Assembly (NCBI GenBank): GCA_001244265.2
Contig: CDLV01000006.1
Location: 744,001 to 808,000, forward strand
Reading direction: 5' to 3'
DNA from: Microbotryum violaceum
Taxonomy: Eukaryota
DNA: 64,000 nucleotides
Shown: positions 38 through 62,494 of the stretch, piece by piece
Numbering within the stretch: position 1 is the first letter of the stretch
Layout: every line of letters starts with the position of its first letter
Notes under the pieces: model-generated
What the model was told of the DNA's origin: nothing
The model's input: the letters and a program-made list of their open reading frames with translations, nothing else
Databases searched by the model: none
Made by a program: the position numbers and the translations under genes

Positions 38-4927
<4,890 letters not shown>

Positions 4928-24616: not shown

Positions 24617-25000
24617 TGTGGCTGATTAAAGAATAAGGTCGGGGGTGAAGAAAAGGGGGGGTGATGAGCAGAGTTGGTTGTCGAGAGGCGGATGACTGTT
24701 GGTAGAGAGACACGACAGAGGAAAGAGGGAAGGACGCAATGCGAGGGTCAGTTGTTGTACTCTGGGAAGGGTGCGATCGAGTTGTGTGGTGCGAGTCGTT
24801 GGAACGATGTTGACGATGTTGACGATGTTGACGATGGTGCGGGGGTGTCGGTGATGGTTTTGGATGGAGCGTGTGACTCTTTGCGGTGATGAAGGGCGGG
24901 CAAAGCGTGTGGCCCGTCGTCGTCGTCGTCGTCTCCGCGCCTGATGAAAAAAAGCGTCGTCGCGCGGGTGGGCGATTGCAGGCGTGCAGCGAAGGCGGCA

Positions 25001-25040
25001 GGCGGTCAGGCGGTCAGGCGGTCAGGCGGTCAGGCGGTCA
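25001..25040. repeat. Tandem 8-mer (GGCGGTCA)x5 in the RPL23 leader region
   Basis: Five exact copies visible; reads (CCTGACCG)n on the RPL23 sense strand. Confidence 0.95.
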
Positions 25041-25452
25041 GGCAGCAGGCGTGCAGCAACAACGACCAACGAGGCAGTACAACCCGGTCATGGTCCGAGG
25101 TCGAGCAGGTCCCCCAACAACGCCACCAAGAGTTGGTCAACTTACGGGCGAGTGGGTGTCGTGAGCGGTCGACAATGCTGTAGGAGACCAGGTCGTTTCA
25201 GCAGGTGGCCGTCGACTCGGGATTCGATTCTCCCGCCGCCAGTCACGCGGCCGGCCTGGCAATTTTGGCCGGTGGCGAGCGGTGGAGAGGCGGTTGTTGA
25301 GCTCGGACCCATTTGTACGCCGCCCTTCGCAAGGCTCGGATTTCCCCCACTCGCCCGGCTCTCATCAGGCTGATCATCTTCGCACCGTTGCCTTTAACCT
25401 AACTCCCCCAGCTGTCACCAGAACATCCTTGGAACCGCGCTCTCTCACCACC

Positions 25453-46000: not shown

Positions 46001-49000
46001 ATGGCGCCTGACGGTGGTGAGTTCAGCTACGCGCTGCAGTTGTACCTATCACGACTGACCAGGATGCCGATTCCAGGAGAACCTCCACGCGGCGCAGGTC
46101 GAGCTCCGTCGATGGCAACACGAAGCTACGCCGCTGCCTCATCCTCCGCTGCATCCCATGCACCCGACGTGCTTCCATCGGCTTCCTCCGTGGCGTCTTC
46201 ACCACCTCCACTTCCTCCCAAAGTTCCCTCGCGTAGATCGAGTTCGGCAAGAGCTATCCCTACCCCCGCCAACCTTTTCAACCCAGTGCCGACGAGCTCC
46301 TTTTTTGGATCTGATGGCGTATCATCATCCTCCTCACCCTCTTCATCGTCTTCTCCACACTTTCATCGAGCCTCGATGAACCCCACCGACACTCCACGTG
46401 TCCCGCCGCCTCGACTACCAGCATGGACGAACGGCACACGACCCTCAGCGGTCTATGACGACGCGCTCCACTCGACGACGAATCGAGTTCGGTCCGGCTC
46501 GTCCAGCTCGACCACCTCGACTACGGCCTCGACGGCGAATGTCACAGGTGCTGTTGGTGGGATCACGTCCATGTCTGGCGTCGAGACATCGTCGTTTAGG
46601 AAACCTTCGATTTCGCCCAAGCAGACTTTGCCTTCATTGCCCCCGAGTTGGTCGTCGATTTCGCCTCAGGTCGCTAGAGCACCACCTCCACCACTACTAC
46701 CGCCGTCGTCCCATGGAGCAGCGGTCCCGGCGAAGGAAGTCGGTGGTGAAGAGATGGTGCCTTCGAATCAGCAGTCGAGACCGGCGTCGTTGGGATGGGC
46801 CTTACCCCCTCAGCCGTCGACTCGCGCCGATGCGACGGGGTGGGAAGTCGACCCCAACGCCCCCCTCACCAGCTCGACGCTTGACCACCAACAGATCGAA
46901 TTCGCCCCTCCTCCCTTTGCGATCCCGCATCGTACACGTACGACGAGGGCGCGTTACGGCTTCAGTAACATCGCCGGGTTGGGTTGGACCGCACCAAAGA
47001 TCTTGGAAAAGCCTGTTCGGGGTGGCGTCGTCGGAGGGATATGGCAGCATGGCGTGTGGGACTTCAAGTTCGTCAACACACCCGAGAATTATCCGCCGAT
47101 GGGGGAGTTGCCCCAAAGGCCCGTAAAAGAGCCGGTGGTGCCGACGACAATGACTTCCCCCCTATCTCCGACAAGCGAGACGACCGAATCGCTCGATGCC
47201 ATGCAGGTCGACGGCGAGGCCACCAAACGATCCGCTGCCGTCGCCGCCGAAGTCTCGATGCAGCAAGCTCCTCCCCAGCACAAGACCATCTCACGAGCCG
47301 AACTCGATCAAGCCCGACCGCACCCCTACCTCTACTACGTACCCCGCCAACATGCTTGGGCGCTCTTTGCCCCTTTTGAGCAGACCGACGCTCACCGCTC
47401 CTTTGTCGACGATGGTCAAGTGCGACTGTGGATTTCGTCGTATGAGACGGCTGAGGTTCTGCTCAGGCGACTCGAGCCTCCGCTTCCTCCCCCCTTTGAA
47501 CCCTTCGATACGACGAAGCTACCCCTTCCCGCTCGAGAAGTCTATGACGCCGCCCGTCGCGTCTGCCTCGAACCTGAACCCGAGTACGTGACCAAAATCG
47601 ACGAGCCCAAGTCCGGTCGGTCGATCCTCTTCTCGGAACAAGACTTATACCCCTGCGTTATCCCTATGCTCGTCCTGCACGAGTTGCTGAGGACGAGGAG
47701 TGAGAGCCCGAGTCCCGGTGATTCGGCCGAGGATGCAAATTTGAATGCAATTCAGACATTATGGAGGTGGGTGAACTCAACTCTCTTCTGGAGTAGTGTA
47801 TCGAAATTGATCTGTCTGCAACACTTTCTTCAGATCCCTCGACAACCTCCTCTTCAAAGCCGAACAGCGACCACTCTCGATCAACGGCAAAGCCTTTGCG
47901 CGCTGTCTTCCCTGGGATGAGCTCACCCGCGCCATCTATGTAGCCATTCTCGGGTTCAGACTCACACCCGAAGAGACGCTCTGTCCACCGAACCTCGTCG
48001 ACTCGACCGACGAAGGACGGGTAAACCGCAATAGGTTGTTGAGGTGTTGGCTCGAGTTGGGACTCTGGATCGAGCATGTGCGCAAGTTGGAGGATCAAGT
48101 GAGGATCCGTAGAGTCGCGACGAGGGTCGAATTATCCTCGGGCGTGGATGCGATGAAGAACGTTTTGGGACCCGATACACTGGCAAGGGTTCCAGCTTCG
48201 AGCGCTTGGGCCATTGCTGGACGGTCGGCGATGACGGCGGGGTTCGATGGTCCAGTCAACCTGTCGCATCAACTCGCTCAGGCGTATCACTTCTTGGGCG
48301 TAACGCCTGATTTGGCCGATTCGGTCCTGGAGGAGGTGTACAAGGAGCAGGTGGGGAGGTGTTCGGCTTATACGGCGGATTGTGAGTCCGGTCCCTGCTC
48401 TTTCGGGGGCGAGGACTGTCAAGCCTGACGCAATATCATCACTTTTTCTTCCCACCAGTCCTCGAAACGATTCAGGAGATCAACCACGATCGTCGTTCGG
48501 ACGTGCTCGAGATGCTGATCGCGACCGAACGCTCGATCGGGCGCGTCTCAATTTCGGATCTGCGCAACGCCTACAAAGAACTCGGCCTCGAATTTGACCA
48601 TTCCCGTTCCGTGACCGATGACGAAATCGCGTTCCGCTTCGGACAAAGGAGGGAACAGGTGACCGATCCTGAACGGAAGAAGGTGTTGAAGGAGGCGATG
48701 AAACAGATTGCGGATCAGAGGGATAGCGAGTTGCTCAAGGTCATGTTGCTTTCTGCGAATGATGAGGAGGATCGACCGGCGATGTCGTTGGAGAAGGCGT
48801 ACAAATTGTTGGAGGCGACGCCGGAAATGTCGGATGAGATACTGAGCATGGTCTATGATGTTCGAGTACGTTTTCGGAGAGAAGGGTTTTCGTGGGTCGC
48901 GGATCGGGTGCTGATCTTGACTTTCGCGAATGGTGCAGATCGCTGACGCTCCGAGTCAAGTCGATGTAATGACACAAGCTCTGGCGACGATCGGTCAAGC

Positions 49001-51160
49001 CATTGGCAGCGACGCCATCCGGGTCAAGCTGGGTGGTGATACGGGTGAGTGTTCTCAAGGTGAAGATCAAATACTATGGATACTCAGCGCTGACCTGCCC
49101 CATACCGATCCTCCAGCTGCTCTGATCCCCCAACCTGCACCGGACATGCCCGTCGGTTTGACCAACATCGCCAACACGTGCTACCTCAACTCGCTCCTGC
49201 AGTACTTTTTCACCATCCGCGAGCTGCGTGAAGCCGTACTCCGCTTCCAGCCGACGCCGACGACCGACGTCTCGGCCTTCAATCGCGTCGGCGGTCGCCT
49301 TGTCACCAAAACTGAAGTCGAACGGTCGAAAAAGTTCGTCGTGCTCTTGCAAACCTTGTTCAACCAGCTCATCCACTCGGCTTCGACGTCCATCACCCCT
49401 GAAACCGAATTGGCGTACCTCGCTTTGGTGCCTTCCAAGGACGAAGCGGAGGTGCTGACGACGACCTCGTCGGCGGACGACCTCATCGTTTTGGATGATC
49501 CAGCTCGAACGAGTGGATCCCCCATCGCGACGACGTCCATGTTGCCTCCGACGAGCGATGACTCCAACCTCAAGTCCCCCTCTTCGTCCATTCTAGGCAA
49601 GAGGCGCAACTCGCACCTCGACAGTGATATCGAGGGAAGTCTGGCATTGGACCAGGTCCGCCTCGAGTCATCGCAGGCTCAATCGCCCAATCAGAGCAGC
49701 TCGGACGGGGCTTCACCTCCTGCGGATCTGGTCGTCGATCTCGAAGCCGCAAGTGCTTTGAACAGGGAAAAAAGTGGGGCTTCATTGTCGAGGTCTTCGT
49801 CGAAGACGGTCGTCGGAGAGTTGTTGGGGTCCTCGGACGAGCAGCGTAAGATGAAGAGGGGTAAATCTGTCGATGGTTCGATTTTCATTCACGCGGATGA
49901 GATGAAGGTCGACGATGATGACGACGACGTCATCATCCTCGAACCTCCTACCGGAACGTCGATGGCAAGGTCACCTACGCTCCCGCCTCGGCCACGACGA
50001 CCGTCCAAGGCGGTGACGAAACTCGAGGATCAAGTTTCCAACTACATGTCGTTTGGTCGTCAGAATGACGTCACCGAGTGCATGGACAATGTCATGTTCC
50101 AGATTGAGTGTGCGCTCAACCCTGATGGGACCCCGGACGAATCCAGCGGATCAGCGACGACGAATGACGCTTCCACTTCGGTGCTACGCAGGTCAGTAGT
50201 AGACGAGGTGAACAAGATGTGGTTTCCATGAACTGATATAGAGACCGCTCTCTGCCGACGAACAGGACGCTGTACGGCAAGATGCGCCAACACCTCGAAT
50301 TCACCGACCCTTCCGTGCCCGAGCCGATCCGCATTCGCGAAGAACCCTTCTTCTCCCTACTCGTCGACGTCGCCGAGGAAGGTCACACCGTTTACGACGG
50401 CCTCGACACCGTCTTTGACGATTCGATCGTCACGATCGAGGGACACGAGGCGCGACGGAGGATGAGGTTGGTCGATGTGCCTCCGGTCCTGCAGATCCAA
50501 CTGCAGCGCGTGCAGTACGACCGCGTCGCGCAGAGGATCTTCAAGTCCAATGCGCATCTCGATTTTGGCGAGACGTTGTCCTTGGATCGGTATCTCGAAG
50601 TCGAAGAAGGCGATGTCGAAGCCGCGCAAAGGCAGGCTTGGACGCAGAGCAAAAGGGACGAGATTGAACTCGCTCGCACGAAGTTGATGGCGCTCAAGTC
50701 GACCAAGACGGGGACGAGCTACGGTACGTGCATCAAAGAGGCGTTTGTGCACCTGTCGACCCTCAAGGACGAATTGGGGGATCTGTTGACGACCGAGTTT
50801 GCGCACGACTCGCTCGAAGAAGCGGCTTGGATCGATCAACAGATCGTCGAACTCGAAACGCGCATCAACGACTCGAGGAAAGCGATCGAGGAGTGTTGGG
50901 CCACCCAGGCCAAGACGGTTTACGAACTCGCGGCAGTGTTTATCCACCGCGGTACGGCGTTGAGCGGGCACTACTTTATCTATCAACGCGATAGCAAGAA
51001 CCGCGATCGGTGGCTCAAGTACAACGATTCGGTCATTACCGATGTTTCGGGTGAGGATAAGGTCCACCTTCGTTCGAGGGACGACACGAATGCGTATTTC
51101 TTGGTGTATTGTCGTCGCGATCGGCTGGATTCGATCGAGTCGATTGCGAGAGAGTTTTAG
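46001..51160 (+). CDS. UBP2: Ubiquitin carboxyl-terminal hydrolase 2 (USP family)
   Basis: Cys box PVGLTNIANTCYLNSLLQYFF, ELAYLAL, GRQNDVTECMDNV, LQIQLQRVQYDR, His box FIHRGTALSGHYFIY, WLKYND; repeated AY..LG helical segments upstream. Confidence 0.92.
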
Positions 51161-51469
51161 CAACATCTGTTTCGGCCCGGACGACGAGGGAATGTGCAAA
51201 TGGTGATAACGAAAATACCTTGTTTCGCTTTTGTCAATAGTACTAGCAACGTGTTTTCTTGTTTTGGTCCGAGTGTTGGTTGCAATCGCAGCGTCAGCAT
51301 TTGCAGCAGCAACAATTGCCCAGATGTGGTAATGACCATTCGATCCTAACGGCTGCGTAAAGGGACGCCGACTTTGTAACGAGGAGATTCGCTGTGCCCG
51401 CGCGAAGCTGGGTTCATAGGCGGGCCGGGTAGCGGCTCGTGCCTTGGTCTTTCTGGACACCCGCCCAAG

Positions 51470-52247
51470 GTTCGTGCAAGCGTCGGTGGGGTGGGCGTGT
51501 CGTCGTCGCTGTGGGATCGAGTGTACTGACCGTGTGATGCTCTCCCCCCTCCTCCCTCCCCTTCCTCCTCTCGTCCGACCTACTCGCCTCGTGTCGTTGC
51601 CGATCGCCCACCTCATCCACGCGCCCCTTCGTGGCTTTTTTCGCGGCGTCGTGGCTCCGCTCGTCGTGGCTGCTGCTGTACGACCTACCGTACGACCTAC
51701 GACTTTGACGGACTTGTCGTTTGATTGGACGTACTACGATTCGTCTGGCCCGACTGTCGGATCTCCTGCGGGTGGTTGTGGTCGTCTGTGGACGTGCCTC
51801 GCCTCTGCACGGCTGTGTTCCCCCGTGTGTGTGTGTCTCGCTCCCCGCCTGGCCCACGCCGACGCCCACCGCTGGCTGGCCGGCTCGCTGGCTGCGCCCG
51901 CTCGCAAAACGCAATTCGCACGCCCTCGCACCCGCACGCCCACCCGCACGCCCACCCACACCCACACCCACGTCCATCCGGTTACATTCGCCATCAACTG
52001 TACCCGTTGTCGACTCGACTTGATTGTTGTTCGTGCATCCACCCCACTGCATCATACACCGGACTGCTGCTGCGTGTGCATCGCCCTGGCCTCGACGCCC
52101 GCCTACGCCCACGGCCCGCGCCTACCCGTTACGCCCTCGTGACGCCCTACGCCCTGCTCGCTCGCCTGCGGAACGACGCCTCTCTCCTTCTCCTCCTCCT
52201 CCTCCTCCTCCTCCTCCTCTTGCACTCGCATACCCGTGCTCCAACAG
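51470..52247 (+). other. Predicted 778-nt 5'-UTR intron of RPS16 with distant branch point
   Basis: AAG|GTTCGT donor at 51470, TACTGAC at 51524-51530 followed by a pyrimidine tract, no AG between 51522 and 52245, CAACAG acceptor directly before ATG 52248. Confidence 0.75.
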
Positions 52248-52969
52248 ATGTCGAGCGCACAGCAAGTCCAAACCTTCGGCAAGAAGAAGACCGCCACCGC
52301 TGTTGCCCTCGCCCGAGTAGGTGGTACCCCAAGGAGGGAGCCAGAAGGATAATGATCGGAGCTGCCGTTCGCTGATCACCTCCTTCTTCATTCACGCATC
52401 CCGTAGGAGGGCAAGGGTCTCATCAAGGTCAACGGTATCCCCCTTTCGCTCTACGGATCCCCCATCCTCCGACCCAAGTTGTACGGTGAGTAAAGATGGC
52501 CGGCTCGCACTCGTCTCGCACGCACCGAAACCAGTCGAGACTGAGAGTCGCTTTCCGCAATTCACAGAACCCCTCCTCCTTCTTACCTCGTTCACCTCGT
52601 CAACCAACTCGCTCCCCTCGCCCCTGTCCCGCATGGACATCCGCCTCCGCGTCTCCGGTGGTGGACACACCTCGCAGATCTACGCGCTCCGCCAGGCGAT
52701 CGCCAAGGCCGTCGTCGCGTACGTCGCCAAGTACGAGGATGCCGCTTCGGCCCTCGAGGTGCGCAAGGTGCTCGTCGCCTACGACCGAACCTTGCTCGTC
52801 GCCGACCCGAGGAGGTGCGAGCCCAAGAAGTTCGGCGGAAAGGGTGCCCGCGCTCGTTTCCAAAAGTCGTACGTATCATTTCCCTCGCCGCCGTGTCTAG
52901 ATTGCTCTCCTCTTTTTTGTATTGAACGCTGATCGCAACAATTTCCACACACACGACAGGTACCGTTAA
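52248..52969 (+). CDS. RPS16: 40S ribosomal protein uS9 (S16)
   Basis: [79 protein letters not shown]. Confidence 0.98.
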
Positions 52970-53538
52970 ATATGCGGTCGATCCTCGAAGCCGCATGGCG
53001 AGCCTTGGATATGCGATCGGGTCACAGTTGGGAACGTGCATCGTCCGGCTTGTGTTGCGTTTACGTATCCGGGTATTGAGATGCTGCAACGAGTTGTGTT
53101 GGTGAAGAAGTTTGTGCCTTTTTGTGTGGTTGCGAGACTTGGAGAAGAGAAGATGAGCACGCGATCAAAGGGGCCAGCGCGCACTCTGCCAGGCCAACAT
53201 GAAAGGAGTCAAATTTCAGTAAGAAGTAGTGTTGACCATCGTAGTGCTTTTCTCCTCGCGACGCGCTGCACCCCGAGGGGTGGACGAATCTCGACCGCAG
53301 GATTCGATTTGTCGTGGCGCGTTCGGACCCATTGCGGTCGACTTGTCAGATCGCCGCGATTCCGCGCAGTCCGGCGTGGCGGCGTCTTCCCTCTCGAGCG
53401 GCTTCCACTTTGGGGCAAGTGCCAGTAATAGCGAGCATCTCGCGACCCCCATCCGCTTCTCCGCTTCGGTCGACCCGATCACCCATGCACCACCGGTAGC
53501 ACTAGAACGAACCCATGAGCTCGTGGCCGCGTCCTTCG

Positions 53539-58745: not shown

Positions 58746-60234
58746 TCTGTGTACGGCAGAGCGGAGCGAAAAAGGGTGTCAGGTCTGGGTGTGCGTCAAT
58801 CGTAAAGTGATCGATCAAGTTGGTGTTTTCCCATCGTTCGTGGTCGTGGTCTCGAGGTCGATAGCAATGCATAATCGTCGTGGTCGCTCGTGGTCGTGGT
58901 CGTGGTCGTAGTCGTAGTCGGGGGTCGGGGGTCGATTGCGTCTCCCGCGTAGGTCGCCCGAGCCTAGCTCCCGGCCGCGAGCCAGCCCAAGCGCCGGGCG
59001 TGGAGGTGCGAAACCACCACCAGCCACGACCATCCATCCATCTATCCAGCTGACCGCTTGCCTCCTCGGCTTCCAATCCACTGCACATCGACGCAATCAT
59101 TCCTTCCTCATCCTGCTCTACATCGCCCATGCGGTCCAAACGGCGATGCTAGCCTCAGTTGGTCGTCGTCGTCGCCGCTCCGCTCAGGCGCGGATTCGAA
59201 TTTTGGGTGGTGTGGGTGGACCAGAGCGGGCGCGGATGAGTGCGACGAACAACGACGACGACCGCAGTGACCTCCCCACTCATAGGTCGTAATGTCGTAG
59301 TCGTGGCATGTCCAAGATACCGGTCATCCGATCAAGATGATCCAAACGTACGTTGATCTGTAGAGGCCTGTGGTATAGGGTGGACGACGATGGGACAGGA
59401 AGGGTAGCCCAAACTCGCCTGCTTGGCACCCGGCCTTGACCCTGCCTCAGCCATGCAATTCGGTTCAATTCGTCCGCAAGCGAATTTGGGCCGGCCACAA
59501 CGCGCATGCGCGCGCGCACGCAGGCCAGCCAGCCCATGGCGCGTGCTACTGACTTTCCCAAGCTCGCGCTCTGCTGTTTTCCTGCTTCCCCCTGTCTTTT
59601 CCGGCCCGCGGGCGGCCTTGAGCTTCGCCAGCCCAATTGGGGTCTTTCAAACTCTGGCTCCCTTTTTTTGAAACACGTTCGGAGAAGGTTTGTAGGGTAG
59701 ACTCCTCTTTCAACTTGCACAATGAAGCGGCTACCAGAACTACACAACTGCCAGCTCTCAAAACTCGGAGACAATTGAGAAGAAAACCCCCGAATTGGCA
59801 CTCACCTTGTGTCAAACCCGACATACTAGCCTGGTAGAGGAAACGCCTGAAAGCAAGGTCGTGTCCATGAGATGGCAAAGATGATCAGCAATCGAGCTCC
59901 CTCCTCGAACAACAACTCCCTCAGTCGCCCACACACAAAACACACGCACAACCGCGCAGAACCCCCGACAAAAGTCGTGAGCAATCCCAATCGCCAACCC
60001 CCACCAATCTCTTCAATTCAGTGATCCAGACATAAAATATTGATATCTTCAGCCGACCTCTCCCGGGTACGGTTTGTAAAGTCGTGACCCGTTTGGCAAA
60101 GTGGAGCGTCGTGGTCCTAGCGGACCTCTTAGTCCGCCCGTCGGTGATGGTTTCATCATGATGAAGAGATGGATGGGAGGAAGTCGTCAGGTGTACGCCT
60201 CTTGCTTTTTGCCTCTTGCAAAAAGATGTGGATA

Positions 60235-60382
<148 letters not shown>

Positions 60383-62494
60383 GGTGTGGTTGGTTAGAGA
60401 AAGAGCTAAGGGAGAGGGTTGAAACTCTTACATGTTGAGTATCACCTCACCTCCATCGTCAAAAGATGAGGATTTAACTTAACCTAAAGCATCAAGCCCA
60501 AACAAAGCAAAAGTCAGTCACTCCTTCCCCACATCTCCACACCCGGAATACGGCGGTCGATAGTCGAAGGTAGGGGCTCAGACATGAACACATAGCATCG
60601 GCATCGTCCGTTGCTACAAGGAGGGGGCAAACCCCCACCCCCGTAGCAAAAGAGCTGGGTTTGCTGAGATAGTGAATCTTGATAAATGTTGGAAAAATCG
60701 TCATGACCGAGGAGGAAACGTTGCGATGGGGAAGCTTGGTTCTCAACGAGGTGGAAAACTTACGATGGGTTTGGTGCGACGCTCGGGCGATGTGCTGAAG
60801 AACGTGAGGAGGCACGTATGGTGTCAGTTTCCTCCCATCTCTTCCACGGAGAACAACGTATGGTCTCAACACCACGAAGGCGTTGTCACTGGTCAGCCAA
60901 GGCTGAAACTTAGATGCGATAGGTTGTCGACAAAATGTGTATTCGGTGTTCCAAAACAAAGGAGCACAAGGGAGAGAGGAGCCAGAAGCCCCTGCCTCCT
61001 TTGCGCGGCCCTGTTTGTATGAAGGAGGTAGTGTAACATCACCCCAGAAACAAACGCGCTCGTGGTGTAGAAAGTTGTGCTGAAGGGCAAGGCTTACCGA
61101 CAGGGAGTCGAGGCCCATCGAGTTCACAGGAGAAGGTCGTGGGTCGGGATCTGATGGTGGAACCACAGCCAAGCTTTGATCAGTCAACTGTTGGAGATGC
61201 GTAGCACCGAGTCCAAGTATCCGTAGCGGGTCGCCAAAGTCGGAAGAGAGCTCAGCGTGTGAATACAAATCTTTAAAATGGAGATTCGTCAAACGAGCGG
61301 CCGGTTGTTCACCGGAACACGCCGTCGGCTACGGTGATGTTAGACCCCAACTTTTTGTTCCCTCGCGCGAACGAAGGAAAGTAAAAGCTCGAGTTCTTCA
61401 TGGCTCTTTTCCTACGGAGGTGTCGGGGAGTGGAGGACGGAAAAGGGAAAGAAGTGCTCACAATGCATTCCGCGGCCATACCACATATCAAGACATGTCT
61501 GATGAGATGAATTGGAAGAGAGGTCGGTTCACACCTGCAGGCTCAAGATGCGCTGCAGGTACAGGACGCCAGCGGATGAAGAAGAAAAAAAATGAGGTTG
61601 GTAGTCAGTGCACGGCCACGAAGGAGCGGCACAGCAAAGCGATCAAGTGGGTGATGTGATGGGCGGATCGTGGGAAAATCAGATCAAGTGTAGATTTATA
61701 GGAATATCTGCATATCGACGTGAACGCGCAATCTCGAAAGTTCGAGCAAGGGTTCGACGTGGGCCGTGGATGATCGGAAAACGAGCGTTCGCAGCGGGGG
61801 TCGAGGCGTCTGCAGTGCAATGAGCCCACGCAGACAGCCGACCTGACCGACGACTATCGAGCACTGGTCGCTGGGTGGGGTTCCTCATCACTTTTGTGGA
61901 GATTGGAGGTGGACAGGACGACTGGTGTGGACCGTGGGGAAGGGAGCGACTTACGATGCGGCGTGGCACTTGGTGAGGAGCAAGCCAGGGCCAGGGCCAG
62001 AGCAGAGGCTGCGAGCGGCGCACCGCTCACGCGCACGCGCACGCGGTGCAATTGGCTCGGGTTCCTAATGAGCGCTTGCGTTGCTAATGCCTGCGAGCGT
62101 GTGATTGCTGGCTATTACTATCGCTGACGTGCGATGATCTGATCGCCAACCCCCTGATACGATACCGCACGCGCTTTCCACCACCACCACCACTCGGCTC
62201 AACTCGACTTGGGAGAGTGTGATCAAGCTCCAACCGATTGCCTCCTGCCAGTCGTTGGGCCACACGATAAGGGAGACGACGGGACCGTGTGACTCTGATC
62301 GTCTTGGTCGTGACACGCTGTACCCGACACGTCGGCCGGCTTGGACTGCCCGCTGGTTTGCTCCCCCCCCCCCCTCCCCCCCACTCGGCACCGGCACGAG
62401 AAGCGCGCGCAGTCTCACCAGCACATTCCGAGCTGGCAGCTGACTGATCGTGGGCTAGAGAAGGCCTTGGGGGCCGGCAGGAGGGGACGAGACC

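Follow-up and report, generated by a model that had tools for sequence, protein, structure and literature searches.

How the 3' splice site is found once branching has taken place is still argued, with linear scanning, diffusion and RNA structure as the competing explanations, and natural introns with a very long distance between branch and acceptor are the best material for testing this search. Here we describe a candidate of this kind in the leader of RPS16, the gene for ribosomal protein uS9, in the fungus Microbotryum violaceum. The analysis concerns a stretch of 64,000 nucleotides, "the window" (GenBank assembly GCA_001244265.2, contig CDLV01000006.1, positions 744,001 to 808,000 of the forward strand), and all coordinates are counted from its first nucleotide unless another locus is named.

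The closest described systems are human exons with distant branch points. In the parts of Gooding et al. (2006, PMC1431707) cited here, the hallmark of the verified cases is a branch site with a pyrimidine tract at the 5' end of an AG-exclusion zone (AGEZ), with AG at normal frequency further upstream, and UACUGAC is named as the ideal branch sequence; the examples include PTB exon 11 (AGEZ 380-381, verified branch at -351), nPTB (AGEZ 438, predicted branch at -389) and GABBR1 exon 23 (AGEZ 287, branch at -275). In Saccharomycotina the distant-branch introns of COF1 and UBC13 depend, according to the cited portion of Gahura et al. (2011, PMC3239191), on a stable stem, which brings branch and acceptor closer together and conceals silent AGs, and branch-acceptor distances of up to 166 nt in Saccharomyces, 471 nt in C. 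glabrata and 185 nt in K. lactis are quoted there. A third group comprises long introns in which branching is "early" or distal; these events, from C. neoformans and S. pombe, are described in the corresponding part of Burke et al. (10.1101/224170) as possibly non-productive. For Microbotryum itself, the passages of the genome paper that we draw upon (PMC4469406) give average lengths of untranslated regions (UTRs) and intergenic regions, and mention neither leader introns nor branch distances.

Judged by its sequence, the region directly upstream of the RPS16 start codon appears to be an extreme member of this known class of introns with a distant branch point and an AG-exclusion zone, and not a new kind of system. 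We propose that positions 51470-52247 constitute a spliceosomal intron in the 5' leader of RPS16, which would branch close to its 5' end and find its acceptor far downstream. In this full form, with the distal-branch mechanism included, the proposal is in our judgment probable; the narrower statement that a leader intron exists here, or existed until recently, can be made with considerable confidence.

An AG-free zone upstream of RPS16 and the signals at its ends

The elements of the putative intron and of the sequence preceding it are the following:

51283..51469, + strand: apparent room for a short non-coding exon 1 with CCCAAG at its 3' end and, ahead of it, the RPS16 promoter, as delimited by the end of the neighbour's 3' UTR and the donor position
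51470..51475, + strand: proposed 5' splice site GTTCGT (CCCAAG/GTTCGT, donor G at 51470), read from the sequence
51522..52245, + strand: AG-exclusion zone, 724 nt, 0 AG versus 18.3 expected, C-rich, with patchy repeats
51524..51530, + strand: branch-site heptamer TACTGAC, candidate branch A at 51529, 59 nt from the donor
51541..51575, + strand: polypyrimidine tract adjoining the branch site, read from the sequence
51678-51700, 51870-51905, 51917-51976 and 52127-52148, + strand: repeat patches of the zone, from repeat analysis
52179..52219, + strand: (CCT)13 pyrimidine tract, 28-68 nt upstream of the acceptor
52245..52247, + strand: proposed 3' splice site CAG, touching the ATG at 52248 (CAACAG/ATG)

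On the + strand the dinucleotide AG is found at 51520-51521 and then not again until 52246-52247, which leaves a gap of 726 nt. The zone itself is composed of 81 A (11%), 308 C, 164 G and 171 T, and it is from this composition that the 18.3 AGs are expected; the lowest number obtained in 20000 mononucleotide shuffles was 6. None of the 81 As is followed by G (58 are followed by C, 16 by T and 7 by A), yet the reverse dinucleotide GA occurs 24 times. The depletion is strand-specific, because CT is present on the same strand at a normal count (79 seen versus 72.7 expected). Upstream of the zone AG has its normal density, with 16 occurrences in the 300 nt before 51520. The absence of AG is far beyond chance, the probability of an AG-free zone being ~1e-8 by a Poisson estimate and 9e-10 if calculated as (1-fG)^81. 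The initial annotation of this stretch, made from the letters alone, had already given the extent of the AG-free zone, the first AG in the CAACAG at the ATG and the abundance of GA, all of them correctly; its chance figure of "below 1e-10" pointed in the right direction and was somewhat overstated.

The baseline for AG-free runs, and for the branch-to-AG distances given below, was the 64-kb window on both strands. The runner-up AG-free runs measure 172 nt (+ strand) and 200 nt (- strand). The former is a (GT)n microsatellite of ~170 nt (60224-60396). The latter, which is the second-longest run that is not a microsatellite (24941-25142 on the - strand), terminates in TTTTTTTCATCAG and contains five CTRAY motifs at 8-nt spacing, 67-99 nt ahead of the AG; possibly this, too, is an intron, with its branch at a moderate distance.

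An obvious alternative is that the zone is simply a purine-poor, low-complexity region assembled from repeat units that contain no AG, without any selection on this dinucleotide. The low content of A agrees with it, as do the repeat arrays (CCT, CACCCA/CACCCGCACGCC, GTACGACCTACC and others) and the fact that AA is gapped here too, over 428 nt. However, with this very composition 18.3 AGs are still expected, tandem repeats account for ~200 of the 724 nt (Tandem Repeats Finder, TRF), 70 of the 79 contexts of A (taken as 7-mers) are distinct, and the G/T-rich part at 51700-51830 is likewise AG-free. If only 50 As are counted as independent, in order to allow for the repeats, the probability of an AG-free zone is still ~3e-6. 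We regard an artefact of composition or repeats as extremely improbable.

Two further points concern the content of the zone. The array at 51917-51976 consists of C-rich CACCCGCACGCC and CACCCA units, and its complement is a run of G-tracts, which could form a G-quadruplex on the template strand. The long open reading frames (ORFs) 51444-52142 (+), 51414-52112 (-) and 51725-52375 (+) matched no Pfam family, and ORFs of this length are expected in A-poor sequence; we rejected a hidden coding gene in the zone.

The zone begins 4 nt ahead of the only CTRAY motif in 51470-52247, which starts at 51526 within a perfect TACTGAC, and it ends with the CAG that touches the ATG. Between donor and acceptor the proposed intron measures 778 nt, 718 nt of which separate the branch A from the acceptor. 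The 40 nt following the branch are 88% pyrimidine and include a CTCCTCC array at 51542-51568 (TRF). The donor AAG/GTTCGT at 51470, the TACTGAC at 51524-51530, the pyrimidine tract behind it and the lack of any CTRAC near the acceptor were all described accurately in the initial annotation. The window contains 12 copies of TACTGAC where 3.7 are expected, a number reached in 0 of 100 shuffles, which agrees with a role as branch consensus in this genome, and the three coding introns of RPS16, which are confirmed by RNA contigs (see below), have the branch motifs CTGAT, CTGAG and CTGAT at 31, 23 and 27 nt from their 3' ends; on these grounds branch sites of the CTRA type are the norm in this organism. 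For the 177 CTRAC sites of the two strands, the first downstream AG lies at a median distance of 23 nt from the A of the motif (90th percentile 63 nt), and the five largest values are 99, 103, 111, 179 and 718 nt.

From this anatomy we infer the occurrence of splicing, the choice of branch and the way in which the distant AG is reached. The donor, the single consensus branch and the strong pyrimidine tract are packed into ~100 nt at the 5' end; this compact unit has the size of an ordinary fungal intron minus its acceptor and would be recognized as such. The first catalytic step would take place at A51529 within this unit, and in the second step the first AG beyond the branch, directly before the ATG, would serve as the acceptor for exon 1. 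A stray AG in the tail would then act as a premature acceptor, and a very highly expressed mRNA would be burdened with a long leader rich in C; mutations creating an AG would be removed by selection, and a perfect AG-free zone would result.

The 9-mer GTTCGTGCA of the proposed donor (51470-51478) recurs inside the tail at 52029-52037. An alternative donor at this place (GTTCGT at 52029), which would define a long AG-free exon 1 and an intron of 219 nt, was considered and rejected: the AG-free "exon" would be unexplained, and an RNA contig described below is collinear across the site.

The RPS16 leader in related loci

Metagenome contigs were scanned with the peptide encoded by exon 3, which left 80 loci; exon 1 was sought in all of them by tblastn, and the Met start could be located in 14. 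In each of the three closest loci among the 80 (L001, L002 and L003, with 87%, 92% and 71% identity in exon 3, respectively), a GT donor, a branch motif and a YAG acceptor of a putative leader intron are found at matching places:

L003, 92 nt: TCAAG/GTTAGT, AACTGAC, TTCAG/ATG; donor to branch 66 nt, branch to acceptor 25 nt
L002, 157 nt: TCAAG/GTGCGT, TGCTGAC, CTCCAG/ATG; donor to branch 50 nt, branch to acceptor 106 nt
L001, 190 nt: TCAAG/GTAAGA, AACTAAC, TTCAG 7 nt before the ATG; donor to branch 59 nt, branch to acceptor 130 nt
Window, 778 nt: CCAAG/GTTCGT, TACTGAC, CAACAG/ATG; donor to branch 59 nt, branch to acceptor 718 nt

Exon 1 ends in YCAAG in all four loci, and the three relatives share TCAAG/GT. 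The stretch from branch to acceptor is devoid of AG in the window, L002 and L003; in L001 it has one AG, located 2 nt past the branch, which is too near for use according to the rule quoted in the cited part of PMC1431707. The AG-free zone starts no more than 13 nt from the consensus branch motif in each locus, and the preceding 300 nt contain 20 AGs in L002 and 21 in L001 (compared to 16 in the window). The telling feature is that donor, branch and acceptor keep their places in sequence that cannot otherwise be aligned; in an alignment of the donor-branch region of the four loci the mean identity is 51%, and apart from the short signals there is no conserved block of any use.

The 5' half of the intron hardly differs in size between the four loci, with 50-66 nt from donor to branch, and it is the tail that varies, with 25-718 nt from branch to acceptor; L003, with the shortest tail, has an ordinary intron. 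The comparison with the relatives suggests that the tail grew in this lineage, from 25 to 106, 130 and 718 nt, and this growth would have come about as AG-free C-rich sequence was inserted and duplicated, with the donor-branch distance held. The core of the initial annotation, namely a leader intron with a branch near its 5' end and an AG-exclusion zone, receives partial support from the recurrence of the same plan in three relatives. The other 11 loci with a located Met have no acceptor abutting the ATG, although AG is found at -8 in L065 and at -10 in L050.

The loci differ also in their coding part. L001 reads through ALAREGKG (3851-3930), i.e. it is without the first coding intron and has kept the leader intron; the first coding intron, which follows ALAR/ALAK, is present in the window, L002 and L003. 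In the uS9 protein of the window we noted a segment of 22 residues encoded at 52576-52630 in exon 3, where most uS9 proteins presumably have a shorter loop. The match to the exon-3 peptide spans residues 1-99 in L001 and 1-89 in L002, and in most other loci it begins only at residue 19-22; the segment looks like an insertion that this core ribosomal protein gained in one lineage.

Copies of the motif CCTACG/CCTACC are found in the AG-free tails of the window (51688-51698 and 52101-52150), L001 (~3825) and L002 (~2995), as well as in a 39-letter replacement in a further relative represented by an RNA contig (X4, see below). Three more copies (L002 2500-2575) lie ~300 nt upstream of exon 1 of L002. 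The motif could be a regulatory site at the DNA level or a weak proximal branch; GCCTACS has 10 matches in the window versus 9.5 expected, i.e. no overall enrichment.

Gene layout, RNA contigs and alternative readings

The genes on either side of the zone are:

48930..51160, + strand: UCH gene, the upstream neighbour, with ORF pieces 48930-50231 and 50282-51160 and the stop at 51160
52248..52975, + strand: RPS16/uS9 coding region, with exons 52248-52316, 52407-52485, 52568-52868 and 52960-52968 plus stop

All four public runs searched for transcripts yielded contigs only, and contigs merge overlapping transcripts and show no starts, levels or local depth; none of the runs is on record as RNA and their labelling as such is a guess, although the coding introns are absent from the contigs of X2, X4 and X10. 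The upstream neighbour encodes a ubiquitin carboxyl-terminal hydrolase (Pfam UCH, PF00443, E 3.5e-15 and 2.9e-22), the 3' UTR of which extends to at least 51282 (contigs X1, 51100-51212, and X2, 51125-51282). The exons of RPS16 translate to a uS9 protein with the C-terminal KSYR, and its coding introns (52317-52406, 52486-52567 and 52869-52959, of 90, 82 and 91 nt, respectively) are confirmed by joints in the contigs of X2, which are identical in sequence, and of X4 and X10. At the other end of the gene, the X4 contig runs 1735 letters beyond 53100 and the X2 contig ends ~10 nt past 53100; the transcripts of RPS16 and its downstream neighbour probably overlap in the X4 relative.

Several results weigh against a leader intron with a productive distal branch. 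The junction 51469/52248, for which the initial annotation had proposed to look, is present in no contig of the four runs, contigs being prone to drop rare or short-ended forms; positions 51283-51940 are without contig cover in all four runs, and such blanks are uninformative on expression or splicing. A short exon 1 may also be trimmed away by the assembler as a dead end. For X2 and X10 the RPS16 contigs end at 52276 and 52255, without loose ends, and we draw no conclusion from these ends. The X4 contig (2624 nt), which comes from a relative 90-95% alike in this part, has the three coding introns removed and is collinear from 52315 back across the acceptor to 51953. The tails of L001-L003 are individually not AG-poor beyond their composition (P 0.17-0.32), and being so purine-poor they are not significant alone. 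The (CCT)13 tract at 52179-52219, together with the CCTACG/CCTACC copies at 52101-52150, can equally be read as a CT-rich core promoter of fungal type, and L002 has a similar CT tract upstream of its exon 1. Finally, branch-acceptor distances in Cryptococcus, which is also a basidiomycete, are typically 15-30 nt, and distances above 50 nt are regarded in the cited part of 10.1101/224170 as maybe prohibitive for the second step.

Because the X4 contig crosses the acceptor, RNA with an unspliced leader and its other introns removed exists, or else transcription starts inside the zone. The contig may accordingly represent a leader-retaining pre-mRNA, a lariat intermediate in which the tail is joined to the exons, or transcripts begun inside the zone; the last of these, which the initial annotation had held to be incompatible with its reading, is compatible with the collinear stretch 51953-52315 without being settled by it. 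The 5' end of the contig at 51953 lies beside the CACCCA/CACCCGCACGCC repeats. Three contigs of 31 letters with higher depth (160-180) map at 51917-51976, which suggests copy-number differences in the relative. Between 51953 and 52247 the X4 relative differs from the window by 10 substitutions and three indels (one of them the 39-letter replacement mentioned above), with no AG created, which is weak evidence, as the chance of this outcome is ~0.33 for the substitutions.

A first alternative, with which the X4 contig agrees, is an internal promoter or a long leader: the majority of RPS16 transcripts would today start inside the zone, for example just after (CCT)13 or near 51950, and part of the "intron" would be promoter and 5' UTR. 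The donor-branch unit would then be a recent relic or be used by few of the transcripts, and the lack of AG would either persist from the past or be upheld by these few. Just ~190 nt are available between the neighbour's 3' UTR and the donor, and the order of a CCTACG cluster followed by a CT tract is that seen upstream of exon 1 in L002 (2500-2575; 2806-2860). Moreover, the 778 nt contain a single ATG, with none from 51540 to 52247 against ~5 expected from the AT and TG frequencies (P ~0.014), as in a leader that is scanned. This sole ATG, at 51537, 8 nt past the branch A, opens a frame of 201 codons (51537-52142) that stops 105 nt before the real RPS16 start; a leader-retaining RNA begun upstream would carry this long upstream ORF, and one begun inside the zone would not. 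On the other hand, a start inside the zone explains neither the strand-specific and total absence of AG over 724 nt, nor the position of the zone between the sole consensus branch and the CAG on the ATG, nor the retention of donor, branch and acceptor in three relatives, and contigs of merged transcripts cannot show where or at what level transcription begins. A purine is favoured at position -3 of a start codon; the spliced forms CCCAAG-ATG and TCAAG-ATG would have A there and the unspliced CAACAG-ATG of the window has C, as read from the sequence. On balance we consider it rather unlikely that most transcripts start inside the zone.

A second alternative accepts the intron and places its productive branch nearer to the acceptor, at GTGAC (52139), TTGAT (52020) or the A of a CCTACG. 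Relaxed branch-like motifs are present in the intron at 51705 (TTGAC), 51721 and 52020 (TTGAT) and 52139 (GTGAC), a second pyrimidine tract precedes the acceptor, and in L001 and L002 CCTACG is located ~21-31 nt before the acceptor (positions estimated by eye), which is the usual branch distance; the view that long branch-acceptor distances are disfavoured in a related fungus (10.1101/224170, as cited above) points the same way. However, none of these candidates fits CTRAY, and the two closest to the acceptor are GTGAC 52139, still more than 100 nt away from it, and TTGAT 52020, while the CCTACG copies of the window lie 100-145 nt away. Furthermore, AG needs to be excluded only past the branch that is used, yet the ~580-610 nt upstream of the candidates are AG-free as well. 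A proximal weak branch seems to us distinctly unlikely.

Returning to the proposed distal branch, we asked what RNA folding has to say about the distance. The minimum free energy (MFE) of the tail is -210.5 against a shuffle mean of -213.4 (z +0.40), and its exterior distance is 13 against a shuffle median of 16; the absence, by these two measures, of any special predicted structure that would shorten the path from branch to acceptor is a further point against the proposal. For L001 and L002 the predicted folding of the tail is poorer than that of the corresponding shuffles. A structure bridging branch and acceptor was rejected, since the MFE fold pairs both ends and the shuffles do so equally. 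The ends of any long RNA are fairly close together, which may perhaps be sufficient here. The suggestion that the tail is a functional RNA finds no support: there are 0 Rfam matches at E up to 1 in 51100-53200, folding is at the level of shuffles, and the ORFs of the zone match no Pfam family. The ideas of a timer in the second step and of uS9 autoregulation, likewise put forward in the initial annotation, find no support in these results either.

A more elaborate possibility is that a slow second step leaves a regulated pool of polyadenylated lariat intermediates or leader-retaining RNA which sets the output of uS9; the X4 contig, with its tail attached to fully spliced coding exons, would be that very species. 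We think this very unlikely; if true, it would be a natural test of the range over which the spliceosome can look for an AG, and would combine the longest natural AG-free search distance that we found described, in the portions of the literature cited here, with a new kind of control of a ribosomal protein.

Comparison with described distant branch points

The described long cases, as far as the cited parts of the papers go, extend over ~350-440 nt in human regulated exons or depend on structure in yeasts. If the proposal is right, the RPS16 leader would offer 718 nt of unstructured, completely AG-free tail, in a gene that is constitutive and a fungus that can be cultured, and the related tails of 25, 106 and 130 nt would provide a natural length series for the distance limit and for the rule of the first AG. 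A tail of this size in a constitutive ribosomal protein gene would be extreme beside the cases named in the literature cited here; we claim no record. For the annotation of fungal genomes the locus carries a warning, as a leader intron of this kind is easily taken for promoter sequence.

With the distal branching in C. neoformans and S. pombe the locus shares the position of the branch near the 5' end of an unusually long intron in a fungus of otherwise short introns. The cases in the cited part of 10.1101/224170 are possibly non-productive, whereas the purge of AG in the window speaks for a distal branch that is used productively and selected for, or was so in the past. The introns of COF1 and UBC13 are likewise fungal and have a branch-to-acceptor distance far above the norm; unlike them, as portrayed in the cited part of PMC3239191, the tail in the window has no AGs to hide and no excess structure.

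The closest correspondence is with the human AGEZ exons as presented in the cited part of PMC1431707. In both, a consensus branch with a pyrimidine tract stands at the 5' end of the zone, AG is normal upstream, no good branch is found near the acceptor, and the 3' splice site is presumed to be the first AG past the branch. The differences are those of scale and setting: 718 nt of tail in a gap of 726 nt is about double the largest cases named there, and we are dealing with a leader intron in a constitutive ribosomal protein gene of a fungus rather than with a regulated alternative exon, the branch in the window being a predicted one. In its layout, the RPS16 leader of Microbotryum thus appears to belong to the scanning type known from human genes and not to the yeast type.

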